DNA from: a virus | Taxonomy: Duplodnaviria; Caudoviricetes | Reading direction: 5' to 3' (one strand) | Length of the DNA: 52,239 bases | IMG/VR virus record: IMGVR_UViG_3300009158_000066 | Location: 1-52,239 of that record | Shown here: piece after piece, positions 21,696 to 47,768 of the stretch | Layout: each line of letters opens with the position of its first letter | How positions within the stretch are numbered: the first letter of the stretch is position 1 | The notes under the pieces: generated by a model | The model's input: only the letters and a program-made list of their open reading frames with translations | Databases searched by the model: none | What the model was told of the DNA's origin: nothing | Made by a program: the position numbers and the translations under genes

Positions 21696-21714
21696 AAAGT
21701 TAACTTATAACAAA

Positions 21715-22533
21715 CTACACACCAGTACAACTACCCCATGCAGATATATGCAAACGTTGTAGACCTCTAATTCCATATTTTTTAGACATCTCTAAGATAA
21801 AATTTGTACGCTCGTGAAAGTCTTCCTGCTTATCCAAGCCAGGCATCATACAAACACTCTTGATAGTTATATCAAACGGTTCAATATAACTTGCAAACAC
21901 TTCTTTTATATCATCTTCTGTACTTACTACAAACTTAAAACTATGGTTCTTATGAGTCTTAATAATCTGAATAGCTTCAGGGTTGATTCTCATCTCTTTA
22001 GACATACCGCTATTATCTAATTTAGCAGAACAGTTTATTTGATCTAGTCTATTCAATAATGCATCGTCAATACGTATTGTACCGTTTGTCTCAATTTCAT
22101 TAAATGTATTACCTTCTGGGTCAAACCACTCAAGAAACTCTACAATAGCTTTTTGATGCTTGGGTATTGTAGGTTCACCACCAGTCCATATCAAATGAAC
22201 CAACCCATTCTTAACGTTCTCTAAGATGCCTAAAGAAACCCAATCATCAACAAGATATTGAAACGGCTTGTAATTACCCTTGACCCATACAGGTGCACTA
22301 TCACACGTCCATGTAGCCTTACCTTCACGCTGAAGGGCTCCAATCAGATTACCACCAGCAACATATTCTTCAGTACTCTTCATCTCTTTTGTAAGAGATA
22401 TAATCTCTTGTGCAAGTAAACCGCAGCGAAGATTGCAGGATTTTAACCTTATAAAGTAAGCAGGTATACCTGTTGATATACCTTCACCTTGAACACTATA
22501 AAAACTCTCAGATATCTCTAGATGATCTTTCAT
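21715..22533 (-). CDS. queE: 7-carboxy-7-deazaguanine synthase (radical SAM)
   Basis: ESFYSVQGEG..G.PAYFIRL..CNLRC, WTCDS, TGGEP, IETNGT, SAKL, FKFVV, MMP, RLH..W. Confidence 0.9.
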   Translation of the reverse strand: MKDHLEISESFYSVQGEGISTGIPAYFIRLKSCNLRCGLLAQEIISLTKEMKSTEEYVAGGNLIGALQREGKATWTCDSAPVWVKGNYKPFQYLVDDWVSLGILENVKNGLVHLIWTGGEPTIPKHQKAIVEFLEWFDPEGNTFNEIETNGTIRIDDALLNRLDQINCSAKLDNSGMSKEMRINPEAIQIIKTHKNHSFKFVVSTEDDIKEVFASYIEPFDITIKSVCMMPGLDKQEDFHERTNFILEMSKKYGIRGLQRLHISAWGSCTGV

Positions 22534-28358: not shown

Positions 28359-28390
28359 AAAAACACACATAAAGAGACTACCATCGATTA

Positions 28391-29446
28391 ATGGCAAAGT
28401 ATGATGATTTAAATATAGCTTGCATTTCTGATATTCATCTTGGAGTACATCAGGACTCAGCTCTTTGGCACGATCAACATATTAAGCTTGCAGAATGGAT
28501 AAGAGACACGCTTAAGTCTAAGAATATAAAAAATATTATCATTGCTGGTGATATTTTTCATAATCGTCATGAAATAAGCGTGTCTACTCTACATACAGCC
28601 AAGCGATTTTTTGATATTTTAAAAGATTTTGAAATTGATGCAATTACTGGTAATCACGATTGTTATTATAGAGACAACTCTAAAATCAATTCTATTTCAG
28701 TATTAGAATCTAATAACGTTAGAATATTTGATACGTTAGTACAGAAAAATATAGGTGGTAGATCTTTTGCGTTTTGTCCATGGGGTACTGAGCTCAGTGA
28801 TATACCTAATGTCGATGTAGTTGTTGGTCATTTTGAATTGTTAAACTTTAAAATGAATACCAATATGCATTGTGATCATGGCTGGGATGGATTAAGCCTT
28901 CTAGATAAATGTCATACTGTTTTAACTGGGCATTTTCACTTACGTCAGGAAAGAGTATATAAAGACAGTAAAGCGGTTATATACCTTGGTTCACCTCTTG
29001 AGCTTGATTGGGGAGATAGAGACGGTCAAAAAGGTATAACTATAATCAACACCAGAAAGCTTGAAACAACGCTTATAGAAAACACTGTATCATCAAAGCA
29101 TGTTAAGGTAAGTATATCTGAACTACAAAATGGAACAGTAGCTTTGAAAGCTCTTAAAGGTTCACTACATTCAAATTATGTAAAGATTATTGTAGATGTT
29201 AAATTTGACGGAGCTAATGTAGATGCTTTATTAACAAAGTTTAACTCGTATCAGCCTCTACAATTAAAAGTTGATTATGATGTACCTAGTGATATTACTG
29301 TTGTAGGTGAGCTTGAAGAAACAAGATTAATATCAATTGAAGATACATTGAAAGAATATATAGATTTACTAGAAGTACAAATTTCAAAGAAACATGTTTT
29401 TGATAAATGTGTAGAATACTACAAAACATTTCAAACTATTAACTAA
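28391..29446 (+). CDS. gp47: Recombination endonuclease subunit gp47 (Mre11/SbcD-like)
   Basis: SDIHLG, GDIFH, GNHD, GHFH metallophosphoesterase motifs. Confidence 0.95.
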   Translation: MAKYDDLNIACISDIHLGVHQDSALWHDQHIKLAEWIRDTLKSKNIKNIIIAGDIFHNRHEISVSTLHTAKRFFDILKDFEIDAITGNHDCYYRDNSKINSISVLESNNVRIFDTLVQKNIGGRSFAFCPWGTELSDIPNVDVVVGHFELLNFKMNTNMHCDHGWDGLSLLDKCHTVLTGHFHLRQERVYKDSKAVIYLGSPLELDWGDRDGQKGITIINTRKLETTLIENTVSSKHVKVSISELQNGTVALKALKGSLHSNYVKIIVDVKFDGANVDALLTKFNSYQPLQLKVDYDVPSDITVVGELEETRLISIEDTLKEYIDLLEVQISKKHVFDKCVEYYKTFQTIN

Positions 29447-29450
29447 TAAT

Positions 29451-31259
29451 ATGAAGCAAATTATTTTAAAAAATATAAAGATAGAAAATTTTCTATCTGT
29501 TGGTAGTAATGCTCTTGAACTACCTCTAGATAATAATGTAAATATTATTACTGGTAGAAACTATGATAAAGAAGATAGTAAGAATGGTGTAGGTAAATCT
29601 ACTATAACTGATGCAGTGCACTTTGCTTTGTACGGTACACCTCTTAGAGATATTTCAAAAGAACAAACTGTAAATCATACCACAGGTAAAAATTGCAAAG
29701 TAGAATTGTCTTTTGTAGTAAAGACAGAATGTACTCAAGATGAGTATGTGATTGTAAGAAGTATATCACCTACAAAGTGTTCTATTTACAAAAATAAAGA
29801 AAACGTAACTCTGTCAACCATGGCAAAGTCTACTGAGTATCTACAAGATCTTATAAATTGTAGTAGTAAAGTATTTCAAAATTCGGTAGTAATGTCAATT
29901 AATAATACTGTGCCGTTTATGGCGCAGAGTAAAGTTGATAAAAGAAAGTATATTGAAAACATGCTTCAATTAGAAGTTTTTTCTCAAATGCTTTTAAGAG
30001 CTAGAGAAGATTATAATGAATTAAAACATGGTTATGATTTAGCTAGATCTAAGCATACTAATAATCTTAATATGTTTTCTAATATTGAAAAGCAGATTAA
30101 TATTTTTGATATTGAAAAACAAGACAGTATTGCAAAGATTGAATCATCACTTGATGAAAAAAATAAAACTCTTGTAGAGTTAGAAAGTAGTCTATTAAAG
30201 TTAGGTAAGACGTCTGTTACTGTTCAAGATTTTACAGAAGATATTAAAAAAATTGAAGATAAGTGTGTTAAATTAAACGCTAAACGTAAAGAGCTAATAG
30301 AAAAGAAAGCACAAACACTTACAGAGAAAAAAATCTTAAAAGAACAATTAAAGCAATTACTTGACTCTACTAAACCGTGCCCTACATGCAAGAGAGCTTT
30401 TGATGTAGATAGTAATTGTGATCATCTAACAGAAAATTTAAAAACTCAAATTAATAATATTGATGAAACAGCTTTTAACGGGAAGTTAGAAGAACTTGAC
30501 GAACTATACGACAAACTTCGAACTGGTTTGAAGAGTATAGAAACAAAACAGAACGACAATAGAAACAGTGTATCTACATTTCAACGAGCTGAGGTAGTAT
30601 TAACTACAAAAATTGAAAATGTAAAAGAGTATATAACAGATTTAAATTTAAGTTTAAAGCAAAAACAATCTGATACAAACACGTTACTAAATGAACAAAA
30701 AGAACAAATACAAAAAGACATAAACTTATCTGAGATAGATGTCAATAATATTGAAAGTGAACTTAAAATACTAGATTGTGTAAAGTATGTCCTTTCTGAA
30801 GAAGGTGTAAAGTCATTTCTTATCAAGAAAATATTGAAAGTATTAAACAGTAAGATCAATTTTTATCTATCTCATTTACAAGCTCCTGTAAAGTGTGAGT
30901 TTAATGAATTTTTTGAAGAGTGTATTACAGATGAGAAGAAGAATGAATGCTCATATTTTAATTTTTCAGGTGGGGAGAGAAAGCGTATAGACCTAGCGTG
31001 TTTATTTGCGTTTATGGACATGAAAAGACTGCAAGGTGAAACAGTGTTTAATACTACGTTCTATGATGAATTGTTAGACTCATCGCTTGATGATAAAGGT
31101 GTAGAACTCGTCTTGGACCTACTTGTTCAACGTAATAAAGACTTTGGTGAAGGTAGTTATATAATAACACATCGAGGTCAGTCATTATTAAATCGTGTAG
31201 ACAAGATTATTAATCTTGAAAAACGTAACGGTGCAACCTATTTATTACAAGATATCTAA
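29451..31259 (+). CDS. gp46: Recombination ATPase gp46 (Rad50/SbcC-like)
   Basis: NGVGKST, CPTC zinc hook, FSGGE signature, YDELLD, ITH. Confidence 0.95.
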   Translation: MKQIILKNIKIENFLSVGSNALELPLDNNVNIITGRNYDKEDSKNGVGKSTITDAVHFALYGTPLRDISKEQTVNHTTGKNCKVELSFVVKTECTQDEYVIVRSISPTKCSIYKNKENVTLSTMAKSTEYLQDLINCSSKVFQNSVVMSINNTVPFMAQSKVDKRKYIENMLQLEVFSQMLLRAREDYNELKHGYDLARSKHTNNLNMFSNIEKQINIFDIEKQDSIAKIESSLDEKNKTLVELESSLLKLGKTSVTVQDFTEDIKKIEDKCVKLNAKRKELIEKKAQTLTEKKILKEQLKQLLDSTKPCPTCKRAFDVDSNCDHLTENLKTQINNIDETAFNGKLEELDELYDKLRTGLKSIETKQNDNRNSVSTFQRAEVVLTTKIENVKEYITDLNLSLKQKQSDTNTLLNEQKEQIQKDINLSEIDVNNIESELKILDCVKYVLSEEGVKSFLIKKILKVLNSKINFYLSHLQAPVKCEFNEFFEECITDEKKNECSYFNFSGGERKRIDLACLFAFMDMKRLQGETVFNTTFYDELLDSSLDDKGVELVLDLLVQRNKDFGEGSYIITHRGQSLLNRVDKIINLEKRNGATYLLQDI

Positions 31260-31265
31260 ATAAAT

Positions 31266-32504
31266 ATGGAATATAAAGCTCACGAGTATAATGTAAGGAA
31301 CGTTATTGGTGCACCAATAGGTTTACCATTGAATATACCATCATCAATGTTGCTAGCGCCTGATTTTGCAGGAAATCAAAAAAAGAAATCTGATATTACG
31401 GATGTTCCAGGTGCTAAATTACCACGAGCTATAAATTACCTTGCTGATTACGGTGGTTGTGCTCTTTGGAGATGTTTAGGACCTAACTTTGTTATAAATT
31501 TATATGAAAAAGGTGTAGTGCATGAACTCACACAAATGGTTTTGGATGAGAGGTTTTATCATGGTATAAAAGCTGTTAAACTTCAACGTCAAGCAACACC
31601 TATACAGCTTCAATTTGCACAACAACTTAAAAAGTTAAGTGAAAAGATGGGGTTTAAAATAATATATGAAGTTGATGATATCGTCTTAGGTGAAGATATA
31701 CCTCTTTATAATAAAAATAAAGGTGCGTTTATGCCTACAGAAATACGCAATAGCATTATTGAGATAATGCAACTTGCAGATGAGATTACAGTTCCATCAG
31801 AGTTTATGAGAGATTATTATATCTCTAAGACAGGCAATACAAAAGCTACTTATATACCAAATTATCTTTTCAGGTGGTGGTGGGATAGATATTACAATCT
31901 TGGTGATAGAGTCAAGTTGTATGAAAGGAATAAAAAGAAACCAGTTATTGCAGTCTTTGCTTCCGGTACACATGTTGATGTAACCGGTAGAGCTAATTTT
32001 GTCGATGACTTTTCACCGGTAGTGCAGCAAATAATACACACCCGTACAATGTATAAGTGGGTGTTTTACGGGTCGTTTCCGTTTCAGGTTAAACCTTTCA
32101 TTGAAAAAGGTGAGATGGAATTTAGACCATGGACAAAATTGCCGGATTATGCTCGTGCTGTAGCTGAATCTGGCGCTCAGCTTACGTTTGCAGCATTATT
32201 AGATAATAATTTCAATAATGCTAAGAGTAATATTAAATTGACAGAAGCTGGGGCAGTTGGTATACCATGCGTATGCCCTGATCTTGCCCCATATAAAGAA
32301 GCCCTCTTGAAATACAAGACAGGTGATGAATTTATTGACTCAATAAAATGGGCTTTAAAAGATCAAACACGTTACGCAGATATATGCAAAAAATCTAGAG
32401 CTCATGCAGAAACATACTGGCTTGAGAGTGAATGTAATATAGAAAAAACGGTTGAGGCTTATTTTACCCCGTTTGGAAGCAAGGAACGTAAATATCTTAT
32501 CTAA
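31266..32504 (+). CDS. Glycosyltransferase, GT-B fold
   Basis: [45 protein letters not shown] (phage GT-B pattern). Confidence 0.8.
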
Positions 32505-33535
32505 TGAAAACAGCAGTAATAACAGGCATTACAGGTCAGGATGGGTCGTATCTAACAGAACAGTTACTTGAAAAAGGTTACGCTGTTCACGGTATGATGC
32601 GTAGATCATCATCATTTAATACACACCGTATTGAACATATTTACTCGCATGAGAATTTAAAATTACATTACGGTGATTTGACTGATACAGGTAGTATATA
32701 TTCTTTATTAGAGCTTATTGAGCCTGATGAAATATACAACCTGGCAGCGCAAAGTCACGTTAAAGTATCTTTTGATATACCAGAATATACCGCACAAGTA
32801 GATGCGGTAGGCACATTGAGATTTTTAGATGCAATACGTAAAGTTGGTTTAGAAAAGAAAACAAGATTTTATCAAGCATCTACCAGTGAGCTTTATGGTA
32901 AAGTGCAGGAGACCCCTCAGACTGAAAAAACACCATTTTATCCAAGATCTCCATATGGTGTAGCAAAAATGTTTAGTTACTGGAGTATTGTAAATCATAG
33001 AGAAGCTTACGGTCTTCATGCCTCTAACGGCATTCTATTTAATCATGAATCCCCAAGGCGAGGTGAAACGTTTGTTAGTAGAAAAATAACACGTGCAGCG
33101 ACTAGAATTGCAGTAGGATCACAATCTGTACTAAAGTTGGGTAATCTAGACGCTAAGCGTGATTGGGGATACGCTCCTGAATATACAGATATGATGTGGC
33201 GTATTCTACAGCAAGAAACTCCCGATGATTATGTTTGTGCTACAGGCGTGACTACTACAGTTAGAGATTTTTGCAAGTATGTATTTGATAGTCTTGGTGT
33301 TGAGATTGCGTTTAAAGGTACAGGGGTTGAAGAGGTTGGCTTCGACGTTAAGACAAACAAGACTTTAATAGAAATAGATCCTAGTTATTTTAGACCTACA
33401 GAAGTAGATCTTCTTTTAGGAGATTATACAAAGGCAAAAACAACATTAAATTGGCAACCAACAGTAAACGTAAGAGAACTTGCAAGTATAATGGTTGAGA
33501 GTGACCTCAAGCTAGCTAATAAAGAGAAAAATTAA
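32504..33535 (+). CDS. gmd: GDP-mannose 4,6-dehydratase
   Basis: [49 protein letters not shown]. Confidence 0.98.
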
Positions 33536-33536
33536 T

Positions 33537-34457
33537 ATGAAAACAGTATACGTTGCAGGGCATACAGGAATGGTTGGTTCAGCAATATGCAAACGTCTTG
33601 AGCAAGATGGTGTTATTGTTTTAAAAAAAACAAGTAAAGAACTTGATCTTCGAGATCAACTTTCTACAAATACCTGGTTGCAAGAATCAAAACCTGATGC
33701 AGTAATTATAGCTGCAGCTAAGGTTGGAGGTATACATGCAAATAATACTTACCCTGCAGAGTTCATATATGATAATTTAACTATAGCTTCTAACTTAATA
33801 CACTCTTCTTATAAAGTAGGTGTTAAGAAATTAATATTTTTAGGTAGTTCTTGTATTTACCCTAAATTTGCAGAACAACCTATCCAAGAAAGTTCATTAT
33901 TAACATCACCTCTTGAACCTACAAATGAAGCTTATGCAATTGCCAAGATTGCAGCTCTTAAACTATGTCAGTACTACAGAAAGCAATATGGTGTAGATTA
34001 TCATAGTGTAATGCCTTGTAATCTTTTCGGTGAAGGTGATAATTATCACCCAGATAACAGCCATGTGTTACCGGGGTTGATTAGAAGGTTTCATGAAGCT
34101 AAAATTGACAACAAACAAGATGTAATAATGTGGGGCACCGGTACACCGTTGAGAGAGTTTCTATTTGCTGATGATCTTGCAAAAATAATAGTCAAACTTT
34201 TAGCAAAAACAGATTTGCCTGATTGGTTAAATATTGGTTCTGATGATGAGTACACCATTAGAGAGCTTGCAGAGATGGTCAAGAACGTCGTAGGGTTTGC
34301 AGGAGATATAATTTTAGATTCTACAAAGCCAGACGGTACACCGAGAAAGAAGATGGATAACACTTTACTTAAAAACATTGTAGATGTTGAGTATACAGAG
34401 TTCACGAAAGGTTTAGAGCTTGCTTATAAAGATTTTCTACGTAGATATACTAAGTAG
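33537..34457 (+). CDS. fcl: GDP-L-fucose synthase
   Basis: GHTGMVGSA, AAKVGGIHAN, LGSSCIYPK, YAIAK, SHVLP, WGTGTPLREF, KPDGTPRK. Confidence 0.97.
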   Translation: MKTVYVAGHTGMVGSAICKRLEQDGVIVLKKTSKELDLRDQLSTNTWLQESKPDAVIIAAAKVGGIHANNTYPAEFIYDNLTIASNLIHSSYKVGVKKLIFLGSSCIYPKFAEQPIQESSLLTSPLEPTNEAYAIAKIAALKLCQYYRKQYGVDYHSVMPCNLFGEGDNYHPDNSHVLPGLIRRFHEAKIDNKQDVIMWGTGTPLREFLFADDLAKIIVKLLAKTDLPDWLNIGSDDEYTIRELAEMVKNVVGFAGDIILDSTKPDGTPRKKMDNTLLKNIVDVEYTEFTKGLELAYKDFLRRYTK

Positions 34458-34475
34458 AGCTCGTATAATATATGC

Positions 34476-37028
34476 ATGTATCGAAACGCATTTTACGATA
34501 ATAAAGAAGGAACAATAAGACTTCGAACTTGGACAGAAGATGGTAAGCGTATTGATACAGACGTGCCGTTTAGTCCGTTTTTGTATACAGAATCAGCAAC
34601 ACCTGCTGACGCAACTAGTATTTTTCGTACTCACTTAAAGCGTAGAGTTTTTAAGAATAACATGGAGCGTAGTAAATTTGTAAAAGAAACTTCTACGAGC
34701 CGTTTGTTCGGTAATATGTCTTGCGAGCAGCAGTTTTTACTTGAAGCGTTTAAAGAACAGGTAGGTGGTAAAGACTTTAGTAAATACCCATTAAAGATAT
34801 ATTCGTTCGATATTGAAACGTACTCCCCTAATGAGTTTCCAATACCTGAGTTAGCTAAAGACCCTGTAATACTAATTACAATACATAATAATCTAACTGA
34901 TGAAATTTTTAGCTGGGGTGTTGAAAAAGAATATAAACCTAAGAATGAACACGTAAAGTATTATTGCTGTCGTACAGAGTTTGAGATGTTTGAAAAGTTT
35001 ATGAATTTCTGGAAGATAGACCCTCCAGATATTTTAGTAGGGTGGAACTCTGAACGATTTGATATTCCATATATTATAAATAGAGCTCGTGGGTTGCTGG
35101 GTGATGAATTTATAAATCAACTTTCACCTGTTGGAAAATTATACTATAAACCTATTATGGATAATTTTGGTAGAAATACAGGAAAATGGATTATATATGG
35201 TTTGAGTTGTCTTGACTATATGGAGATATATAGAGCGTATGCAAAAGGTGAACGTGAATCTTATTCTCTTAACTATATCGGTGAGTATGAATTAAAGGAA
35301 GGTAAATTAGCAATCAATGCTACAAATCTCTCTAACCTTGCTAATGAAGATTGGGAAAATTTTGTAGACTACAATATTCAAGATGTACAGCTTCTTGTAA
35401 AACTAGAAGCAAAATTAAACTATCTTCGAATTGTACGCCTACTTGCGTATAAGGGTTGCACTAACTTTGAAGCAGCATTAGGTAAGATTGCTATTGTAAC
35501 AGGTGCAATGTATCTTCAGGCATACAAGCAGGGGTATGTTATACCCACCTTTAAAAATGAAGAGATTAGAGATACACTCGTTGGTGGTTATGTTAGAGAG
35601 CCAGAACGCGGTCTCAAAAAAAGTATAGTAAGTTATGACGTTAACTCACTATACCCAAACACAATTATAACTTTAAACATATCTGCAGAAACAAAGTTAG
35701 GTAAAATTGTGATTGGTGAATATGGTGTAGACGACAAACTGACAATTAGATTAGTAAACGGTAAGATACATGAGTTAACAGAAAAACAGTTTAAAGCTTT
35801 TATTAAAAAAGAAAAGATCTCAGTATCAAAAGCGGGGGTATTATATTCTCAAAAATATAAAGGTGTATGTCCGAATCTAATTGACACTCTTTATACTGAA
35901 CGTGTTGAAGCTCAAAAACAAAAGTTAACTCTTGAAAAGAAGAAAAAGTTAAATGAAGAAGAAAAAGCTACTGTAGAATATCTTGACACTCTACAGTATA
36001 CGATTAAGATTCTACTCAATTCAATTTATGGTACTTTTGCAAACAAATATAGTGCGTTTATGGATATTGACAACGCGTCGTCAATCACAAAAACAGGTCA
36101 AGCGGTAGCGAAAGAAGGAGCTAAGATACTAGACCAATTTATTCAAAAAACATATGGTGTAGAGTCTTCTTGTGTTATTGCAGGGGATACAGACAGTGTA
36201 TACATTACTATACAGCCAATTTTAGATAAATTAGAACTGCCGCTAGCTGTAGATAATTTAATAACAAAAAAAGTACATACAATTGTTGATGAAATTACAG
36301 AGGTAGTAAATAGGGAAATTAATAGTTGGGCTGGTACAGAATTAAATTCAAGCGATTCACGTTTTGTTTTCAAGAGAGAGGTAATTGCAGATGTAGGTAC
36401 ATTTTTGCAGAAAAAAAGATATATAATTCGTATCTTAGATAAGGAAGGGGTAGCAGTTGAAGGTGGTAAATTTAAGTATGTAGGTGTTGAGATAGCCAGA
36501 AGCACTATGCCTAAAAAAGTTAAAGAGATTGTTAAAGAAGTTTTAGAAAACGCTCTCTTGACTAACGACATTAAAGGTACCAATGACATTTATCGTCATG
36601 CATACGACACATTTATCTCATTACCGCTTGCAGAAGTAGCTTTTAGAAGTAGTATTCAGAATTACAATAAATACGCTGAAGGTGCTACCTTAGATAAATT
36701 TAACAAAGGTACACCATGTCACGTGAAAGCTAGTATAGCGTTTAATCTACTTTTAGAGAAGTTTAAATTGTCTGGTAAGTATGAAAAAATACAGTCAGGT
36801 CAAAAAGTAAAGTACTTCTACACAGCCAACAACCCCTATAGACTTGACGCTATTGCTTTTGTAACAGATTACCCAAAAGAATTTGAAAAGGTCAAGATTG
36901 ACTATGAGAAAATGTTTTTAAAAATTGCAGCTCCTCCGGTAGAGCGTTTATATGAAGCTTTAGATTGGAGACTACCTCAAATTGGTAAAGAAGTACAAAC
37001 TGATTTATTTGATCTATTCTGTATATAG
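34476..37028 (+). CDS. gp43: Family B DNA polymerase, gp43-like
   Basis: Exo I DIET, Exo II NSERFDIPY, Exo III YNIQD; SYDVNSLYP, KILLNSIYG, GDTDS, KKRY. Confidence 0.98.
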   Translation: MYRNAFYDNKEGTIRLRTWTEDGKRIDTDVPFSPFLYTESATPADATSIFRTHLKRRVFKNNMERSKFVKETSTSRLFGNMSCEQQFLLEAFKEQVGGKDFSKYPLKIYSFDIETYSPNEFPIPELAKDPVILITIHNNLTDEIFSWGVEKEYKPKNEHVKYYCCRTEFEMFEKFMNFWKIDPPDILVGWNSERFDIPYIINRARGLLGDEFINQLSPVGKLYYKPIMDNFGRNTGKWIIYGLSCLDYMEIYRAYAKGERESYSLNYIGEYELKEGKLAINATNLSNLANEDWENFVDYNIQDVQLLVKLEAKLNYLRIVRLLAYKGCTNFEAALGKIAIVTGAMYLQAYKQGYVIPTFKNEEIRDTLVGGYVREPERGLKKSIVSYDVNSLYPNTIITLNISAETKLGKIVIGEYGVDDKLTIRLVNGKIHELTEKQFKAFIKKEKISVSKAGVLYSQKYKGVCPNLIDTLYTERVEAQKQKLTLEKKKKLNEEEKATVEYLDTLQYTIKILLNSIYGTFANKYSAFMDIDNASSITKTGQAVAKEGAKILDQFIQKTYGVESSCVIAGDTDSVYITIQPILDKLELPLAVDNLITKKVHTIVDEITEVVNREINSWAGTELNSSDSRFVFKREVIADVGTFLQKKRYIIRILDKEGVAVEGGKFKYVGVEIARSTMPKKVKEIVKEVLENALLTNDIKGTNDIYRHAYDTFISLPLAEVAFRSSIQNYNKYAEGATLDKFNKGTPCHVKASIAFNLLLEKFKLSGKYEKIQSGQKVKYFYTANNPYRLDAIAFVTDYPKEFEKVKIDYEKMFLKIAAPPVERLYEALDWRLPQIGKEVQTDLFDLFCI

Positions 37029-37053
37029 ATCAAATAAATATCTTTTATAAGAT

Positions 37054-38730
37054 ATGCAAGACCTTTTACCGGAATATAAAACTGAATCAGGTTACATTTA
37101 CTTTACAATAACAAATGCAGGGTACATACAATTTGTTCTTAATTTCTGTAAAAGAAATAAAGAATTAAACACACTTAAAAAATTAATAATAGTTTGCACA
37201 GATAAAGAATCCTACAACCAACTAACCTACCTCGTTGATTGTATATGTGTATATTTTCCGTGCTTTATATCTAAAACTCTTGAATCCTGGCATACAACAA
37301 ACTATAAAGATATTGTTTTTAAGAAGCTAGATATCACAAAATGGGTTCTTCAATGGGCACAGTTAAACGATGTTAAACGTGTCGTGTACCTTGATACTGA
37401 TATGTGGTTGTATAAAGATTTTGTACCTGATCTTGAAAATTTTGTAGATAAAACATACGATATCGTAGATGTTATAATGCAAGATGGTGAAAATTATGCT
37501 GATGAACCTTTTGAACCTACATACACAATAACACCGACAACAAGTACGCTTGAGGTTAAGAAATACTGCACACGTCTATGTACAGGTCTAATGATACTAA
37601 AACCTAATAATACTGTTACAGATATGCTTGACTATAAGAGCAATAGACTTGTAGATTGGTCTAAGTACGTAGGTAATCAACCATTTTTAAATGACACTAT
37701 TGATGCTTATCAAATTACGGCAATAGCTCTACCAAGACGTCTAGCAATAAATGGTAGCATATTCAACACTAGCGATATAGCAAGTAGTAAGGATAAACTT
37801 GAACTCGAACTAAATAAACTGAAGTGTAGTGATACATGGTTATTACATTACACATATTCTATTGGTGTTGCAAAAATAGAAATGATGTCTTTATTAGGTC
37901 ACTGGGCTCTGTCTACTGCTGAAACTCAAGCTTTTTTAGGTAAAAGTACAGGTCGTCCAGATCTATATGTAAGATGCCCTGACGGATTTGCAAATCAGCT
38001 GAGAATTCTACTTGCAGGAGTTTATCTAATGCAAACTAATAGTATAAACAGCTTTACAATTGAATGGGTGTTAAACAATCATAATAATGTAAATTTTTTA
38101 GATTATTTTGAAAAACCACCAGGTGTTGTTATAAAAGATATTGATAGTAGTATTGACGATGAAAAAATTATTAAAACTTGTAGTTTTGAATACTTAATTA
38201 ACAAATACGCTAAACGAGGCACGCTATGGAATACAGCACTTAGTGTAGCTTTAAAGTATTTAATTATAAAAAGAGATGTACAACTAGAAGTTGATAGTTT
38301 CGTTAAACAAAACAAGATCAATGAATCCCTTGGTGTTCACGCAAGACGTACATGCAAGACAGCTCTACTAGAAGGTGTACACGATAGAAGTTTACCTCTT
38401 ACAAACACTGAAATTCTATCCATCTGTAGATCGTTTACAAAAGTGTATGTCGCAACAGATAATAAAGAAACACAAGACTACTTCATCAAGGAATTAAACG
38501 AATCCGTTGTAGTATACAAGCCTATCATACATGGAGCGGAGCATTTTCCGTATGATGAATATAGTAGAGATGGTGTACAGAGATACACAGACGGTAAGCA
38601 CAATATAATGGACTTCTTATCACTAAAACAGTGTAGAACTTTTTTAGGTAGCAATGAAAGTGCTTATTCGTTACTATTATTTCATTGGAGAAAAAATAGT
38701 AACGACTACCATGTCTTTGGTAAACTATAA
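37054..38730 (+). CDS. Two-domain glycosyltransferase: GT-A (GT77-like) N-terminus plus fucosyltransferase-like C-terminus
   Basis: N-terminal VYLDTD (DxD), CTGLM, NQPFLN, LHY; C-terminal DGFANQLR, GVHARRT, VYVATDN, D...L..C..FLGSNESAYS (motifs shared by GT11/GT23/O-fucosyltransferases). Confidence 0.8.
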   Translation: MQDLLPEYKTESGYIYFTITNAGYIQFVLNFCKRNKELNTLKKLIIVCTDKESYNQLTYLVDCICVYFPCFISKTLESWHTTNYKDIVFKKLDITKWVLQWAQLNDVKRVVYLDTDMWLYKDFVPDLENFVDKTYDIVDVIMQDGENYADEPFEPTYTITPTTSTLEVKKYCTRLCTGLMILKPNNTVTDMLDYKSNRLVDWSKYVGNQPFLNDTIDAYQITAIALPRRLAINGSIFNTSDIASSKDKLELELNKLKCSDTWLLHYTYSIGVAKIEMMSLLGHWALSTAETQAFLGKSTGRPDLYVRCPDGFANQLRILLAGVYLMQTNSINSFTIEWVLNNHNNVNFLDYFEKPPGVVIKDIDSSIDDEKIIKTCSFEYLINKYAKRGTLWNTALSVALKYLIIKRDVQLEVDSFVKQNKINESLGVHARRTCKTALLEGVHDRSLPLTNTEILSICRSFTKVYVATDNKETQDYFIKELNESVVVYKPIIHGAEHFPYDEYSRDGVQRYTDGKHNIMDFLSLKQCRTFLGSNESAYSLLLFHWRKNSNDYHVFGKL

Positions 38731-38898
38731 AAGTAAAAAAGTGTCAACGGTGTATGTTTCAAGCTGAGCTATTGTACATCTATATTTTTCTTCAGATGTT
38801 ATTAAGAGTTTAGTCTTTGCTTTACACTCATCTTTTGTCTCAGAAATTGTACTCCAGAGATATTTACAATCTATTTTAGATACATACATTATTTTCAT
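38725..38898 (-). CDS. Possible small protein (57 aa)
   Basis: Manual translation MKIMYVSKIDCKYLWSTISETKDECKAK...; fills the intergenic gap; no other support. Confidence 0.3.
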   Translation of the reverse strand: MKIMYVSKIDCKYLWSTISETKDECKAKTKLLITSEEKYRCTIAQLETYTVDTFLLL

Positions 38899-38927
38899 TT
38901 GAAAAAAAATTAAAAGTGAGGTATAAT
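38899..38927 (+). promoter_or_regulatory. Sigma70-like early promoter
   Basis: TTGAAA-N17-TATAAT ending 7 nt before the ATG at 38935. Confidence 0.7.
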
Positions 38928-38934
38928 TCTACTT

Positions 38935-39789
38935 ATGCTAGTAAGTCACGAAACACCTGTAGACATGTTGGATGTATCAAGATACTACAATGACTATGAT
39001 TATTGTCTTGTTCATCTTTTACCGGAAAACGAAAAATACAAAGATTTTTATATTGAATCTGTTAAGTTAGGTAGACATGTTCTACTTGACAATTCAATTT
39101 TTGAATTAGGAGAAGCATATGATAACACAAAATTTGCGCAGTGGGTTGTAGATCTAACCCCGACTGAGTACATTGTACCAGATGTTCTTGAAGAGACTCA
39201 TCAAACAATTAGTTCTTTTGTAAGCTTTACAGGGACATATAAAGACTTACCAGGCAAAAAGATTGGCGTTGTACAAGGAAAGACTTATGAAGAAATAGTT
39301 GAGTGTTATAAATTTCTTGCAGACAAAGTAGATAAAATTGCTATAAGTTTTGACTATAGCTTTTATCTCAATAGTAAAGAAGAAAACAACAATTATAAAA
39401 AATTTATTGTATCAGAATTAAATATTAGAGAAGATCTTATTGATAATAAATGGTGCGATTACGCTATTGGTAGAATTCAGCTTTTAAATAGATTGATAGG
39501 GGATGGTATTTTTGTTGAGAAACCTCATCACTTATTAGGGTGTAGTGTACCTTGGGAATTTAAAGCTATTAATAATACACTTGATAGCTTTTATTTAAAG
39601 TGTATTGAAACTATAGACACATCAAACCCTATAGTAGCAGGTATATTAGAGCATCCGTATAACATTAACTACGGTCTTTGTGAGAAGTGGTCTTATAAGT
39701 TAGTAGACTTTATTAATCATGTTCCGCATATCAAGCAAAAACAAATAATACAAAACAACGTATGGATGTTTAAGAATTTCTGTCGTTAA
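38935..39789 (+). CDS. TGT/DpdA-like TIM-barrel protein (7-deazaguanine insertion or nucleotide-forming enzyme)
   Basis: LLDNSIFE (cf. DSG.F), VPDV, GVVQG, HHLLG, IDTSNP follow the TGT/DpdA motif order; heads an operon containing queF. Confidence 0.7.
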   Translation: MLVSHETPVDMLDVSRYYNDYDYCLVHLLPENEKYKDFYIESVKLGRHVLLDNSIFELGEAYDNTKFAQWVVDLTPTEYIVPDVLEETHQTISSFVSFTGTYKDLPGKKIGVVQGKTYEEIVECYKFLADKVDKIAISFDYSFYLNSKEENNNYKKFIVSELNIREDLIDNKWCDYAIGRIQLLNRLIGDGIFVEKPHHLLGCSVPWEFKAINNTLDSFYLKCIETIDTSNPIVAGILEHPYNINYGLCEKWSYKLVDFINHVPHIKQKQIIQNNVWMFKNFCR

Positions 39790-39793
39790 TTTT

Positions 39794-40330
39794 ATGAAAA
39801 AATGGGTAGCTTTATTCTCACAAACAGGTACAGAGATCTTTAATCTAATTGAAGATCTTGCTATTAAACCTGATAGAATTGTTATTAATAATTCTGATCT
39901 AACAAATGTTAATAGTAAATTGTTAGATAAACATTTTGATGTATTGTGGGTTGTACCTAATAAGCCAAGCATTGAGGAGTATGATACCTTTCTTGATGAA
40001 AGTACAATCGTAACAATGCACGGTTGGTTGAGAATTGTGCCGCCTATAATTTGTGAGAGATATAAGATATATAATCTACACCCAGCTCCATTAACTCGTT
40101 ACCCATTTCTCAAAGGTAAAGATCCGCAAAAAAGATGTATAGAACAAAATCTAGAGTACGGTGGTAACACGTTACATGTGTGTTCGAGTGAGTTAGATTC
40201 AGGCAAAATTATATATGAGGATGAGGTTAGAATAAGAGGCTACAGTGTTAATGTAGCATATGATGCAATATATGCATCAGCATTTAAACTGTGGAAGAAA
40301 TTTCTAATAAATGAATTTAAAAGAAGTTAA
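39794..40330 (+). CDS. PurN-like formyltransferase (candidate preQ1 formyltransferase, DpdN-like)
   Basis: LFSQTGT, GWLRIVP, YNLHPAPL, GNTLH...ELDSGKI formyl-THF transferase motifs. Confidence 0.85.
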   Translation: MKKWVALFSQTGTEIFNLIEDLAIKPDRIVINNSDLTNVNSKLLDKHFDVLWVVPNKPSIEEYDTFLDESTIVTMHGWLRIVPPIICERYKIYNLHPAPLTRYPFLKGKDPQKRCIEQNLEYGGNTLHVCSSELDSGKIIYEDEVRIRGYSVNVAYDAIYASAFKLWKKFLINEFKRS

Positions 40331-40541
40331 AAGTTCAATACAGTTAGAGTTGCTTTATAAAATCTTGTCATGTATTTACAATGATGAACTAGAAACTTTA
40401 TTTGCGACAGAAAGTTATAGAGATATACATACCTTAGTCAAAAGTATGATTATTTACGACATGATATTTTACACTGCAGATAATAGATTGTTATTGACTT
40501 CTATAGGTAGAAACGTATTATTCAATTGCCCGTTATTTTAA
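40311..40541 (+). CDS. Small hypothetical protein
   Basis: 76 aa ORF within the operon. Confidence 0.55.
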   Translation: MNLKEVKSSIQLELLYKILSCIYNDELETLFATESYRDIHTLVKSMIIYDMIFYTADNRLLLTSIGRNVLFNCPLF

Positions 40542-40545
40542 ATTT

Positions 40546-41076
40546 ATGAAAATTGCACTTTCAGGTCTACACAGTCAAGGCAAGACAACGTTACTCAATA
40601 TCTTTGATAACAATCAAATTTTTAAAGATTATTATAAAGTGCCAAGCCCTACAAGAATACTTCAAAGTGAAGGTTTTGTAATAAATGAAAGCGGGGATGA
40701 AGTTACTCAAACACTCATAATGATGCAACATTATAAGAACGCTGTAAAGTGCGGTACAAAAGCTTTTTTTGATCGTTGTACTTTAGATGGCTTAGCGTAT
40801 AGTCTCTTTTTTAAAGAGAAATTAAAAGATAAAAAAGTGTATAGTTTAATTGTAGATTTATTTAAATTAACAATTCAAAGCTATGATGTTATATTTTATA
40901 TTGAACCAGAACTTGAACTACAGAATGACAATACACGATCTCTTGATCGTGTATTTTTTGACAATGTAAAACAAAACTTTGAAGACGTTATTGCAGAGTA
41001 CAAAATTGATGTTAAAAGAGTTAAAGGTACAATACAAGAACGTGTAGATTTTATACAGAAATTTATTAATATTTAA
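40546..41076 (+). CDS. P-loop nucleotide kinase-like protein (AAA_28/NadR-type)
   Basis: GLHSQGKTT, FDRCTLD.LAY, YDVIFY; similar motifs to 21078..21695. Confidence 0.8.
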   Translation: MKIALSGLHSQGKTTLLNIFDNNQIFKDYYKVPSPTRILQSEGFVINESGDEVTQTLIMMQHYKNAVKCGTKAFFDRCTLDGLAYSLFFKEKLKDKKVYSLIVDLFKLTIQSYDVIFYIEPELELQNDNTRSLDRVFFDNVKQNFEDVIAEYKIDVKRVKGTIQERVDFIQKFINI

Positions 41077-41078
41077 AT

Positions 41079-41987
41079 ATGAGTGATATACTAGACAATT
41101 CAGCTATTTCAAAAGTTCTAGGTCAGAGAGTATCTGCACCTGCTCGTTATGATAAATCTATTTTAGTCCGAGAACCTCGACAAAGTAATAGAACGTATTT
41201 AGGTATACGTGATAGTGCTTTACCGTTTGTTGGTAAAGATCTTTGGAATAACTGGGAGATTAGTGCGCTTACAACTAACGGTATGCCGATAACAGGTATT
41301 GCACAAATAGTATACGACTGTAACTCAAAGTATATTGTTGAATCAAAATCTGCTAAGTTGTATTTTAATTCTTTCAATATGACTCAATTTGGAGATTCAA
41401 GTACGGAGGTAATTAAAAATATTGAAGAGTGTGCTTCAAGAGATTTATCTGAACTACTTGAATCACCCGTATCTGTAAAGATATTTTCAGCATCAGCTCA
41501 TAATTCACGAGATACTGATTTGAAGGAATATTCAAAGTATATAACACTTGAAGACCAAGAAGGTGTAAATGAAATAAAATTTAACACATATAGTGAGAAT
41601 TCAGGTTTGCTTGTTATTAACAAGAGTAATACAACTCAAGAACAATACTTTAGAAGTACACTACTACGTTCAAATTGCCGTGTAACTAATCAACCCGATC
41701 ACGGAGATGTATATATCTACCTGAAATCAAAAAATAAAATTACACCAAAATCCCTTATTCAATATATAGTGAGTTTTAGAAATGAGTGTCATTTTCACGA
41801 AGAGATCTGTGAGGCTATTTATAAACGTATTCTTGATCTATGTGAACCTGAAGAGTTGAGAGTGTCATGCTATTATGTACGTCGTGGAAGTTTAGACATC
41901 AACCCTGTACGAGCTACTCATGAACATTTACTTGAAGATTATCTATTAAATACTAATATACGTTTCTGTAAGACACCTAGACAATAA
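41079..41987 (+). CDS. queF: NADPH-dependent preQ0 reductase, bimodular QueF
   Basis: DLWNNWEIS, VESKSAKLYFNSF, RSNCRVTNQPD (catalytic Cys/Asp), FHEEICE, RRGSLDINP. Confidence 0.95.
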   Translation: MSDILDNSAISKVLGQRVSAPARYDKSILVREPRQSNRTYLGIRDSALPFVGKDLWNNWEISALTTNGMPITGIAQIVYDCNSKYIVESKSAKLYFNSFNMTQFGDSSTEVIKNIEECASRDLSELLESPVSVKIFSASAHNSRDTDLKEYSKYITLEDQEGVNEIKFNTYSENSGLLVINKSNTTQEQYFRSTLLRSNCRVTNQPDHGDVYIYLKSKNKITPKSLIQYIVSFRNECHFHEEICEAIYKRILDLCEPEELRVSCYYVRRGSLDINPVRATHEHLLEDYLLNTNIRFCKTPRQ

Positions 41988-41992
41988 AAATT

Positions 41993-42373
41993 ATGAAGAA
42001 AAACGAAAAAGACAATAAAGAAACCTTGACAGTGTTTCTTGATACAATTGGTCGAACTATTCTTGGCGCTCTTGAAGCGGAAGATAGTAACTCAATTACT
42101 ATCAAGAACCCTGCAGTCGTAAACATTACTCCCAACCCTACAAACGGTCAGATATCTCTACAGTTACTACCTCTATTTTTTAGAGAGTTTCTAGCAGATA
42201 GTACCGAACCTACCAGGTGGGTGTATCAGAAGAGTTTAATAACTCGCTGTCAAGATATTACTCTTGACTTCAAGTTTCTAGCACAATACGGCCAAATTTT
42301 TGCACCAATTCAAGCTCAACAAGCAGAGCCTCCCAAGGGAGATGGTAATGTGATCAAATTATTTGATGAATAA
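41993..42373 (+). CDS. Hypothetical protein
   Basis: 126 aa ORF ending VIKLFDE. Confidence 0.7.
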   Translation: MKKNEKDNKETLTVFLDTIGRTILGALEAEDSNSITIKNPAVVNITPNPTNGQISLQLLPLFFREFLADSTEPTRWVYQKSLITRCQDITLDFKFLAQYGQIFAPIQAQQAEPPKGDGNVIKLFDE

Positions 42374-42400
42374 TTAAAACACAACACTAACAAACTCATT

Positions 42401-42434
42401 AAAACCTACACAATACAAAGTGTAGGTTTTTTTT
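42401..42434 (+). terminator. Intrinsic terminator
   Basis: AAAACCTACAC-aatacaaa-GTGTAGGTTTT followed by a T-run. Confidence 0.85.
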
Positions 42435-42467
42435 GATTTAACGAGAATGTAATATATCATACTACAT

Positions 42468-43565
42468 ATGGCTAAAGACTCTCTTAATCATCTTAAAGAT
42501 ATTTTCAAATCTGTCGACGATCTTAACCCTGACGCTGCTACTCTCGATGAAAGTACTCTTTCGTCTGCTGACGAATGGATTGATACTGGGTGTTATGCAT
42601 TAAACGCTATCATTTCAGGTTCTTTATATAAAGGTATACCTGTAGGGCGTATTGCAGGGTTTGCAGGACCATCGCAAGCTGGCAAATCACTGATAATGAA
42701 TCGCATCATGGCTAATGCTCAGAAGATAGGCTATGTACCTGTAATTTGGGATTCGGAAGTTGCAGTAGATAAGCGCAGCGCTGAAGGTGCAGGTATGGAC
42801 ACAAAACGGGTTAAGTATTACCCAGTAGAAACTATTGAAGATTGTAGAAATCAAATGTGTAAATTCTTTGATAATATTATTGCAGCAAATAATCCAGAGT
42901 TAAAATTTATCGTTGCAATTGATTCTCTCGGTAACTTAGCAAGTGCGAAGGAAATAAGAGATGCATCTGCAGGTAAGGATGCAAGTGATGTTGGTCAACG
43001 TGCAAAAGCAATCAAATCAATGATGCGTACTTTAACGTATAAAGCTGCAAAAGCAAAAGTACCAGTGTTGTTTAGTAATCATATATATGATAGTATGGAG
43101 ATGTTTCCTTCACTCGTTAAGACACAAAGTGGTGGGAAAGGACCTATATATCTTGCATCAGTATTAGTGCAGTTGAGTACTCGTAACGAGAAGTCTACTG
43201 AAAACCCAAATGAAGCGTCAGTAGCTATTTCAAATAATGTTTCAGGTGTAACACTTTCAGCAATGACTGTTAAAAATCGTTTTGTACCAAACTTTTTAAA
43301 GACTGAATTATATTTAAATTTCAAAACCGGTCTTGATAAATACTCAGGGCTATTTGAAATAGCAACAGCGTATGGAGTTTTAGTGAAAGCAGGTAATAGA
43401 TATACATTTGGTGAAGAGAATTTAGGTTATCGTAAAGATATTGAAAAAAATATTGAATGTTGGGAGAAGATAATGCCAAAACTTGAAGAAGTTCTGCAAG
43501 AGCAATTATGTTATAGCAATGATAAGACAGCTGAGTTGCAAAAAGAAGTTGACGATATAGCATAA
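42468..43565 (+). CDS. uvsX: RecA-like recombinase UvsX
   Basis: IDTGCYALNAIISG, GPSQAGKS, WDSE, IDSLGNL, NHIY, SGG, KNRF. Confidence 0.93.
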   Translation: MAKDSLNHLKDIFKSVDDLNPDAATLDESTLSSADEWIDTGCYALNAIISGSLYKGIPVGRIAGFAGPSQAGKSLIMNRIMANAQKIGYVPVIWDSEVAVDKRSAEGAGMDTKRVKYYPVETIEDCRNQMCKFFDNIIAANNPELKFIVAIDSLGNLASAKEIRDASAGKDASDVGQRAKAIKSMMRTLTYKAAKAKVPVLFSNHIYDSMEMFPSLVKTQSGGKGPIYLASVLVQLSTRNEKSTENPNEASVAISNNVSGVTLSAMTVKNRFVPNFLKTELYLNFKTGLDKYSGLFEIATAYGVLVKAGNRYTFGEENLGYRKDIEKNIECWEKIMPKLEEVLQEQLCYSNDKTAELQKEVDDIA

Positions 43566-46934: not shown

Positions 46935-47768
46935 ATGCCACGTAAAAAAACAAACGACGACATACCAGACATTCAAAATACAATTGAGGGATTTCCAAAG
47001 AAATATATACCAAAAGTAGGTACTCGAGACGCCACGGTGCCTATCAAGATCATTCGTAAGGATGGAACTGTAAATGAAGGTAGTGGTAAGGTTAGTATGT
47101 ATACTGATCTTACACCTGAAGTAAAGGGTACGAATATGAGTCGGTATCGTATTCTTATTGAAGAGATTCTTCAGAAAGATGGTTATTATATTCATGAAGT
47201 AATTCCGAGTCTCCTTACTGAATGTAAGGAGCGTCTTAAGGCTGATAATGCTTATGTGAAGATTAACTTTGACTACTTTCTTAAGAAGAAAGCGCCAGTA
47301 TCAGGTGTAGAGTCTCATATGGATTATAGAGGCTGTATGGAAGGTAAATTGATCAATGGAGAGCAGAAGCTATATCTAAAGGTTAGTGTGCTGTATGCAT
47401 CGTTGTGCCCTTGTAGTAAAGAGATTAGTGATTATGGAGCTCATAATCAGCGAAGTGTTGCAGATGTAGTAGTAGAACTTGATGAGTCAAAAGGTGTTAT
47501 GTGGATTGAGGAGTTGATTGATATTGTAGAGCGTTGCAGTTCTGCACCTATCATTAACGCATTGAAGAGAATCGATGAAGCATATCAAACAGAACTAATG
47601 TATGAAAACCCTCGCTTTGTTGAAGATATGGTTCGCTTGATTGGTCAAGAGCTTGATATTGAGCTTGATAACCGTATCAAAGATTATAGTGTTGTAGTAA
47701 ATCACTATGAAAGTATTCATAGTTCAACTGCATGTGCAATTATTAACGCTGGTAGAACATTAACGTAA
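46935..47768 (+). CDS. folE2: GTP cyclohydrolase IB
   Basis: KGTNMSR, SLCPCSKEISDYGAHNQR, KRIDE, ENPRFVEDMVR, ESIH. Confidence 0.95.
   Translation: MPRKKTNDDIPDIQNTIEGFPKKYIPKVGTRDATVPIKIIRKDGTVNEGSGKVSMYTDLTPEVKGTNMSRYRILIEEILQKDGYYIHEVIPSLLTECKERLKADNAYVKINFDYFLKKKAPVSGVESHMDYRGCMEGKLINGEQKLYLKVSVLYASLCPCSKEISDYGAHNQRSVADVVVELDESKGVMWIEELIDIVERCSSAPIINALKRIDEAYQTELMYENPRFVEDMVRLIGQELDIELDNRIKDYSVVVNHYESIHSSTACAIINAGRTLT

Follow-up and report, generated by a model that had tools for sequence, protein, structure and literature searches.

A DpdA3-DpdN deazaguanine cassette and a probably independent fucose module beside the DNA polymerase gene of an uncultured freshwater T4-like phage

Introduction

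Around the DNA polymerase gene of an uncultured freshwater phage, genes predicted to make and transfer fucose lie against genes predicted to make a 7-deazaguanine base, and this arrangement raises the question of whether the two sets act together on the viral DNA or only share a neighbourhood. The locus occupies positions 31,266 to 41,987 of IMG/VR virus record IMGVR_UViG_3300009158_000066, whose full 52,239 bases we call the window (CheckV completeness 24%). An earlier note, made from the sequence alone, had read nine genes of this block as one candidate new system for glycosylation or DNA hypermodification. All nine exist where it placed them, co-oriented on the + strand, but they are not one system. 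In the reading that we consider probable, three independent parts are packed around the DNA polymerase: a cassette of the type known from Flavobacterium phage immuto, directed at a base like formyl-preQ1 (fdPreQ1), an independent accessory fucose module with a non-DNA acceptor, and a glycosyltransferase (GT) of the GT-B fold that belongs to the core of the phage lineage. The genes of the block are as follows.

31266..32504, + strand: GT4-like GT-B glycosyltransferase, core gene of the lineage (Pfam Glyco_trans_1_2, E 2.4e-4, a weak match; model predicted local distance difference test, pLDDT, 81.6)
32504..33535, + strand: gmd, GDP-mannose 4,6-dehydratase, probable accessory cargo (TIGR01472, 551.7 bits against a cut-off of 415; PF16363, E 5e-145)
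33537..34457, + strand: fcl, GDP-L-fucose synthase, probable accessory cargo (NF047922, E 3.3e-133, full length)
34476..37028, + strand: polB, gp43-type family-B DNA polymerase, both flanks of which are cargo sites (Pfam DNA_pol_B and exo1; phrog_262, E 1.6e-193)
37054..38730, + strand: bifunctional glycosyltransferase of 558 residues, with an N-terminal GT8-like GT-A domain and a C-terminal fucosyltransferase-like (FucT-like) domain
38935..39789, + strand: dpdA3, proposed DNA guanine transglycosylase of the DpdA3 subfamily (41.8% identical to immuto DpdA3; phrog_19058, E 2.6e-51)
39794..40330, + strand: dpdN, PurN-type formyltransferase, proposed preQ1/dPreQ1 formylase (Formyl_trans_N, E 1.5e-9; 40% identical to immuto DpdN)
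40546..41076, + strand: P-loop kinase-like protein (AAA_28, E 3.3e-12)
41079..41987, + strand: queF, two-domain NADPH-dependent preQ0 reductase (QueF_N, E 2.5e-32; QueF, E 3.3e-20)

Results

The four genes that close the block form a cassette with a known counterpart. The first had been called TGT/DpdA-like (TGT, tRNA-guanine transglycosylase), and we confirm it as a relative of DpdA3: its product is 41.8% identical, across 99% of its length, to the immuto protein annotated 'DNA guanine transglycosylase', and 41.9% identical to its counterpart in the CP220 group. The novelty claimed for the operon as a whole does not survive, since immuto carries homologous genes in the same order, dpdA3-formyltransferase-kinase-queF, with identities of 42%, 40% (E 1e-44, full length), 29% (L001, 13472-13996) and 43% (E 2e-87), respectively. 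Both genomes also encode a GTP cyclohydrolase and a QueE elsewhere. The DpdA3 family comprises 1399 cluster representatives at E 0.001 or better, and neighbours in the Atlas that bear the names transglycosylase or DpdA serve only as leads. dpdN adjoins dpdA3 in all 20 loci that hold a complete cassette. DpdA3 and DpdN are independently tied together by natural fusions of DpdA3 with a DpdN-like formyltransferase, found twice among the 10 longest DpdA3 matches scanned (P0172 and P0179, 447 residues each); in P0172 the C-terminal half shares 34% identity with the window DpdN. The kinase, for its part, still accompanies dpdA3 in two loci that lack dpdN and queF (L017 and L026).

The chemistry of the immuto cassette has been measured: the deoxyguanosine (dG) peak is gone from its DNA, with no dG peak detected, and a 324 Da nucleoside identified as fdPreQ1 reaches 345,000 per million nucleotides, dPreQ1 not being detected (PMC10516641). 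Cui et al. describe DpdA3 as modifying the immuto genome completely, by a base exchange that they propose to follow replication, and give the formyltransferase the name DpdN; in the main text of that study the words 'glycosyl', 'sugar', 'fucose', 'kinase' and 'P-loop' do not occur (PMC10516641). By analogy, in the window phage GTP would be converted to preQ0 with the help of a folE2 and a queE-like gene encoded elsewhere in the window, QueF would reduce preQ0 to preQ1, DpdA3 would swap guanine in DNA for the deazaguanine base and DpdN would formylate its aminomethyl group, thus capping the preQ1 amine. The predicted outcome is DNA in which G is replaced by formyl-preQ1, blocking restriction. 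The homology and order of the cassette genes are observed directly, while this chemistry is carried over from the immuto work. The DpdA3-linked kinase may perform a nucleoside- or nucleotide-level step in complete guanine replacement.

The two cassettes also differ. Immuto has a family-A polymerase, whereas the T4-like window phage has one of family B; its cyclohydrolase is annotated FolE and that of the window is FolE2; the small open reading frames (ORFs) inside the two cassettes are unrelated; and DNA chemistry was measured there, while the phage described here is known from its genes alone. The small ORF of the window, which may not be a gene, has no match in L003-L008 or immuto and is kept only in the closely related contig L002. 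Campylobacter phage CP220 offers a simpler comparison: the gene after its DpdA3 encodes a P-loop kinase homologous to that of the window (33% identical, E 1e-24; L152, 5819-6361), but no DpdN or QueF was found in the region examined; its DNA carries the amido derivative dADG (PMC10516641). Two loci of the window lineage, L017 and L026, resemble this DpdA3-kinase form, and the reduced cassettes (L017, L026 and L088) suggest that different deazaguanine bases occur within one phage lineage. As a side observation, the window encodes a GMP reductase-like protein (14855-15787, + strand; NF003966, E 1.8e-92, below cut-off), which, in a phage expected to replace the guanine of its DNA, could either deplete or recycle the pool of guanine nucleotides. 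The cassette is accompanied by the following minor features.

40311..40541, + strand: 76-residue ORF overlapping the end of dpdN, perhaps not a gene (97% identical in L002)
41993..42373, + strand: orf126, a core gene of 126 residues before uvsX, outside the cassette (it follows polB in 28 loci without dpdA3)
42401..42430, + strand: terminator-like hairpin closing the unit after orf126 (11-pair stem, then a T run)

Whether sugar and deazaguanine genes travel together was examined in both directions. A scan of viral contigs for DpdA3-like proteins returned seven loci, all with dpdA3-dpdN-kinase-queF, and in the three that are T4-like relatives of the window (L002, L003 and L004) dpdA3 directly follows polB. 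One of these, L003 (the contig also numbered L009), reads sbcD, sbcC, GT-B, polB, dpdA3, dpdN, kinase, queF, orf126, uvsX, gp41, gp32, folE2, and has no gmd, fcl or fusion gene. A larger sample came from a survey of GT-B loci, in which 476 viral stretches were found to encode a relative of the window GT-B and the best 80 were fetched. Downstream of polB, 58 of these loci are informative: 28 run straight to orf126 and uvsX, and 30 have dpdA3, either with all four cassette genes (20 loci), with the kinase only (L017 and L026), alone (L088) or at a contig end that falls inside the cassette (seven loci). Gmd above its cut-off was found in none of five records of dpdA3-bearing relatives, none of four records of relatives without dpdA3 (one of them a complete 217 kb genome) and neither of the two complete DpdA3 phages, immuto and CP220. 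Among cultured phages, DpdA3 matches occur in 23 records (Campylobacter, Cellulophaga and Flavobacterium phages) and Gmd matches in 84, mostly cyanophages, with no organism common to the two lists. Conversely, no dpdA3 lies near homologues of the FucT domain in any of 13 viral loci or 18 metagenome loci, the latter being the best 18 (L102-L119) of 43 fetched, of which the other 25 are 21-31% identical.

Variation between strains separates the modules further. The L002 contig (~98% identical DNA) aligns at 97.6% and 97.9% on either side of the following segment, lacks the fusion gene and keeps the dpdA3 cassette.

37028..38725, no strand: presence/absence segment of 1698 bases carrying the GT-A/FucT gene (13 bases in its place in L002)

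Contigs of four sequencing runs from three studies (X2, X3, X4 and X6) were aligned to positions 31000-39500. In X2, a lake metagenome, one contig has the L002 form: positions 37024 and 38726 are joined there, separated by 16 letters. A second X2 contig runs from 32622 directly to 34143, a 1520-base deletion in gmd-fcl with 7 bases of microhomology, and by our reading of the frames this leaves out-of-frame stubs of gmd and fcl; the change in the X2 strain was therefore a loss rather than a gain. The two deletion contigs have similar depth (7.67 and 7.2). The strains in X3, X4 and X6, ~94-96% identical to the window, carry both gmd-fcl and the fusion gene, and dpdA3 is covered in all four runs. 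In the reading that we consider probable, polB lies between two variable sites whose cargo, gmd-fcl at one and the fusion gene at the other, is dispensable and is kept or lost as a unit. The polB-dpdA3 junction is a cargo site, which in the window holds the GT-A/FucT gene. At the same junction, a heme oxygenase and a ferredoxin-dependent bilin reductase are encoded in L034 (13845-15052), L045 (13843-15032) and L046. We also looked for a sign of foreign origin in guanine-plus-cytosine content, and there is none (gmd 37.0%, fcl 35.1%, fusion gene 32.6%, whole window 33.3%).

The enzymes of the fucose module are of unequal familiarity. That the phage encodes its own Gmd and Fcl, as the earlier note had it, is upheld by a Gmd score above the family cut-off and a full-length best match for Fcl; the two genes adjoin, 1 base apart, and gmd is 61-63% identical to the gmd of T4-like cyanophages. 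In the description of 37054..38730 as a GT-A/fucosyltransferase fusion, the N-terminal half is borne out by fold; the C-terminal half is fucosyltransferase-like by profile, and its own match to O-FucT is weak. The N-terminal half matches Pfam Nucleotid_trans (E 1.4e-7), with DTD at residues 114-116, and in the structural model (pLDDT 81.1) its Foldseek matches are glycogenin, GlyE, Skp1 galactosyltransferase and LARGE1. Because Foldseek on the 558-residue model returned only matches to this domain, the C-terminal domain was examined by sequence profile. Against solved structures the profile finds POFUT2 (1.9e-4), POFUT1 (2.2e-3), FUT8 (0.02) and NodZ (0.3), and 16 of the 17 rows listed are fucosyltransferases. 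An invariant H-x-R-R stretch of the family, which we take to be the arginine motif of the donor site, with a role in GDP-fucose binding, aligns in HMMER with H-W-R-R of POFUT2, and split homologues in L091 and L092 pass the O-FucT cut-off (36.0 and 31.9 bits). The C-terminal half is thus fucosyltransferase-like; its use of GDP-fucose is a prediction, to which its co-presence and co-loss with gmd-fcl and one homologue next to an fcl gene point indirectly.

The fusion enzyme itself is rare, with 15 homologues among 5.8 billion clusters and no tblastn match in cultured phages. A single-protein scan of viral contigs found no match, while an alignment-based scan did find relatives. The closest relatives (~35% identical), from 13 viral loci, are encoded as two neighbouring, unfused genes in reverse order, set in islands with GT2, GT90, GT61, RgpF, short-chain dehydrogenase/reductase (SDR) sugar enzymes and epimerases, a hexapeptide acyltransferase and a sulfotransferase. 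One of the 18 metagenome loci (L104) has fcl beside the FucT domain, and in P0016 and P0018 the FucT-like domain is fused to different glycosyltransferase domains. The FucT profile had no match in four relatives' records, including the complete 217 kb genome, in a search made without a positive control. Separately, L091 (7011-11535) and L092 (5760-11539), large aquatic phage contigs of 197-204 kb, contain glycan islands with O-FucT-like, GT90, GT61, GT8-like and sulfotransferase genes, families better known from eukaryotes.

The GT-B gene belongs to neither module. Its Foldseek top matches are BshA, glycogen synthase, PimB', MshA, WaaG and PglA; it has 577 homologues, of which the 120 listed are 56-78% identical, and only two weak tblastn matches among cultured phages. 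The order sbcC-GT-B-polB is kept in all 77 relatives' loci that reach polB (best 80 of 476), and the gap from GT-B to polB is at most 67 bases in 74 of these 77, against 1971 bases in the window. Across the 80 related loci, none has gmd or fcl between GT-B and polB and none has the fusion gene. Since GT-B is kept in relatives with the cassette (30 loci) and without it (28 loci), and without fucose genes, it is independent of both the fucose and the deazaguanine modules: it is a core gene of the lineage, presumably with an acceptor of its own. We also observed that GT-B is among the best-conserved genes of the lineage (46-76% identical in L009-L088, against ~40% for the neighbouring sbcC) and that it has an invariant N-terminal motif containing Cys.

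The supply of preQ0 is partly encoded in the window, by two genes outside the block.

46935..47768, + strand: folE2, GTP cyclohydrolase I type 2, first step towards preQ0 (PF02649, E 6e-68; NF010200, 224.9 bits against a cut-off of 215)
21715..22533, - strand: divergent QueE-like radical-SAM protein (five best NCBIfam matches all QueE models)

FolE2 is 90% identical in L003. The QueE-like protein matches five NCBIfam QueE models (E 2.2e-18 to 7.3e-9, each below cut-off), is 24% identical to immuto QueE (E 1e-10) and is 61% identical to an ORF adjoining QueD in a relative. QueD stands beside QueE in four of five relatives' partial records, and preQ0 may come partly from the host. In the relatives L146-L149, a cytidylyltransferase-like gene, QueD, the QueE-like gene and an AAA_28 gene lie in a row, and window positions 21078-22533 (- strand) hold the QueE-like and AAA_28 genes with no QueD there.

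Sequence motifs had been used to assign the sugar genes to late expression and the dpdA-like operon to a sigma70-type promoter. TAAATA does occur at 31257, 31261 and 37035, one base off the places given before, and the copy at 31257 overlaps the sbcC stop codon and lies 4 bases from the next start codon. The motif is no commoner than chance, however: the window has 98 copies where 124 +/- 10 are expected, and the full T4 late octamer TATAAATA is found 8 times against 11.9 expected. We therefore reject T4 late promoters for the sugar genes, the motif not being enriched. The second motif is a real match to consensus, listed here, but such sites occur overall at chance level (70 against 70.3 expected).

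38899..38927, + strand: sigma70-like site before dpdA3, a consensus match only (TTGAAA-17-TATAAT, 11/12 positions)

No better match lies in the 15 kb from 28000 to 43000, and L002 has the site as well. The end of the second hexamer is 8 bases before the dpdA3 start codon, so that a transcript from this site, if used, would be nearly leaderless. No RNA run is on record among the listed sequencing runs that contain the stretch, and no expression timing is inferable from the motifs.

By its gene content the window phage is a distant, uncultured T4-like myovirus of freshwater. Its T4-like markers are a gp25-like baseplate protein, ribonucleotide reductase, primase, an sbcCD-like gp46/47 pair, UvsX, a gp41-like helicase, gp32 and a T4-type terminase. 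A Megablast comparison of the block with cultured phages gave no match, and the window has no close cultured relative in that set; polB reaches no more than 31% identity with any cultured-phage polymerase, with an unclassified phage and T4-like cyanophages as best matches. Several studies of lakes and other freshwaters have yielded metagenome contigs with near-identical or 94-97% identical DNA.

Discussion

We have argued that the locus combines an immuto-type cassette, a core GT-B gene and, independent of both, a fucose module, an arrangement that we hold to be likely. In this arrangement, Gmd and Fcl would convert GDP-mannose to GDP-L-fucose, which the fusion enzyme would use along with a second sugar in assembling a short glycan that bears fucose and sits on an acceptor other than DNA. 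The sugar part falls into a general category of accessory cargo that is already known, but its enzyme is unusual. Its closest precedent is the GMD/GMER pair of chloroviruses such as PBCV-1, where a virus-encoded pathway from GDP-mannose to GDP-L-fucose is likewise combined with the virus's own cytoplasmic glycosyltransferases. The chlorovirus pair supplies fucose for capsid glycans, and the presence of gmd and gmer varies between virus groups (PMC5408694). Chloroviruses differ in being eukaryotic giant viruses in which fucose has been demonstrated on the major capsid protein, whereas the phage module is a prediction from genes and its transferase is a GT8/FucT fusion without a cultured-phage homologue. 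The gmd clusters of the cyanophages P-SSM2, S-SKS1, S-CAM7 and S-SCSM1 also belong to large T4-like myoviruses and have Gmd proteins 61-63% identical to that of the window, but no cyanophage record has a DpdA3 match, and the window genes stand singly at the flanks of polB rather than in a large island.

Several observations weigh against this interpretation. On the side of the cassette, the phage is uncultured and its chemistry is read from genes; the protein of 38935-39789 has no Pfam or NCBIfam match, and the TGT fold of DpdA3 was not recovered by Pfam, by phmmer against solved structures or by the family profile, the one contact being a weak match to DUF6610 in 1 of 11 family members (E 0.0053). 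QueF scores 243.1 bits on TIGR03138, below the 293-bit cut-off. QueC was not found in the window, a 24%-complete fragment, or in five relatives' records (35-53% complete), and QueD is missing from the window at the spot where relatives keep it beside QueE. Because QueC and QueD were not found, the inserted base could differ from fdPreQ1 or depend on preQ0 from the host, and the final base is therefore a prediction. On the side of the sugar genes, Fcl (443.9 bits) lies below its 500-bit cut-off and the C-terminal half of the fusion enzyme matches O-FucT weakly (E 0.0017; 18.5 bits against a cut-off of 31.5). Each of the two X2 joints is on a contig of its own, and they cannot be phased together; co-loss depends on this sample alone, both sugar loci being present in the other three runs. 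Relatives are mostly known from fragmentary records, which leaves the absence of gmd elsewhere in them unproven. The packing of the sugar genes among replication genes without terminators would suit a DNA-directed role equally well, and strain-variable sugar genes for DNA glycosylation are known in T-even phages.

As to what the fucose module acts on, a protein of the phage or virion attracts a little less than half of our confidence, a glycan or protein of the host envelope somewhat under a third and DNA a very small share, with the rest left unassigned. The lean of the earlier note towards a non-DNA acceptor agrees with our findings. A protein acceptor, of the virion or otherwise, is weakly favoured over an envelope glycan because the matches are mostly to protein-directed enzymes and no hydrophobic segment is present in GT-B or the fusion enzyme.

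The alternative that fares best is that the module remodels the host surface, altering an envelope glycan such as lipopolysaccharide, capsule, S-layer or flagellin glycan, with the virion not its target; this could block superinfection or stop progeny from re-adsorbing to debris. Such a role is possible, if unlikely. The sugar clusters of the T4-like cyanophages P-SSM2, S-SKS1 and S-CAM7 contain gmd and are usually read as cell-surface genes, the GT8 family includes lipopolysaccharide transferases, and a strain-variable module fits an arms-race trait. However, genes for a lipid carrier, flippase or polymerase were found neither nearby nor in the islands examined, and the best matches by fold and by profile are to enzymes that act on proteins. 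Both GT-B and the fusion enzyme lack a membrane segment, but so do peripheral membrane glycosyltransferases.

A single pathway in which GT-B, GT-A and FucT act in series to place a fucose-containing trisaccharide on one acceptor appears improbable. The co-oriented GT-B gene overlaps the gmd start codon (ATGA at 32504), and PimB', a GT4 enzyme that uses GDP-mannose, is among the fold matches of GT-B. But GT-B lies directly before polB without a fucose gene in 74 of 77 relatives (46-76% identity), the complete 217 kb genome has GT-B without Gmd or a FucT-like gene (the FucT search having had no positive control), and the X2 strain keeps GT-B while losing the sugar genes. The proposal in the earlier note of a phage-made fucose glycan built by three GT domains accordingly stands in part: Gmd, Fcl and the FucT-like domain make such a glycan plausible, but GT-B is not of the set (80 of 80 relatives have it without fucose genes).

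DNA hypermodification, in which fucose or a fucose-containing disaccharide is placed on preQ1 or another modified base to give a new glycosylated 7-deazaguanine, is very improbable. Its attraction lies in the map and the chemistry: the sugar genes stand on either side of the polymerase and next to the dpdA3 cassette, with no terminator between them and the replication genes, and the product of QueF is a primary amine. T4 itself has its alpha- and beta-glucosyltransferases, GT-B-fold enzymes, amid replication genes, near genes 43, uvsX and 47. By the test that the earlier note itself set, independent occurrence of the two gene sets in related phages, the evidence nevertheless goes against the link to DNA: the cassette occurs without sugar genes in L002, L003/L009, L004, L005-L008, all 30 dpdA3-bearing loci, immuto and CP220; conversely, FucT homologues occur without dpdA3 in 13 of 13 viral loci and 18 of 18 metagenome loci examined. 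Comparison with T4 is no more favourable. All 37 listed Foldseek matches of GT-B are GT4-type and none is a T4 enzyme; a search of five relatives' records, one of them complete, revealed no ThyA-type hydroxymethylase that could act as partner; and the sugar genes of the window do not co-occur with base-modification genes. The amine should moreover be capped by DpdN, as in immuto, where fdPreQ1 is present and dPreQ1 undetected, in a study whose main text does not use 'glycosyl', 'sugar' or 'fucose' (PMC10516641). Among papers on phage DNA modification retrieved from 2022 onward, none announces a glycosylated deazaguanine in its title or abstract opening, and among works retrieved on DpdA3 the study of Cui et al. 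alone proved relevant.

The least credible variant, which we think extremely unlikely, is that part of the preQ1 escapes formylation and is fucosylated by the GT8/FucT fusion. The resulting fucosyl-7-deazaguanine would vary between strains and add a further layer of protection, much as glucosylation patterns vary among T-even phages. An optional add-on of this kind is compatible with the joint loss of gmd-fcl and the transferase from one strain that keeps the cassette.

Our findings place the immuto-type DpdA3-DpdN cassette in a large, uncultured freshwater T4-like lineage, where its slot is fixed between polB and uvsX and filled in 30 of 58 informative loci, a natural with/without comparison for complete guanine replacement. 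Clues to how DpdA3 achieves complete replacement may lie in the kinase linked to it and in its natural fusions with DpdN. The locus also illustrates that proximity to replication genes can mislead, the flanks of polB in T4-like genomes being cargo sites, and the GT8/fucosyltransferase enzyme, which comes with its own predicted supply of GDP-fucose, emerges as a candidate for work on phage glycans.

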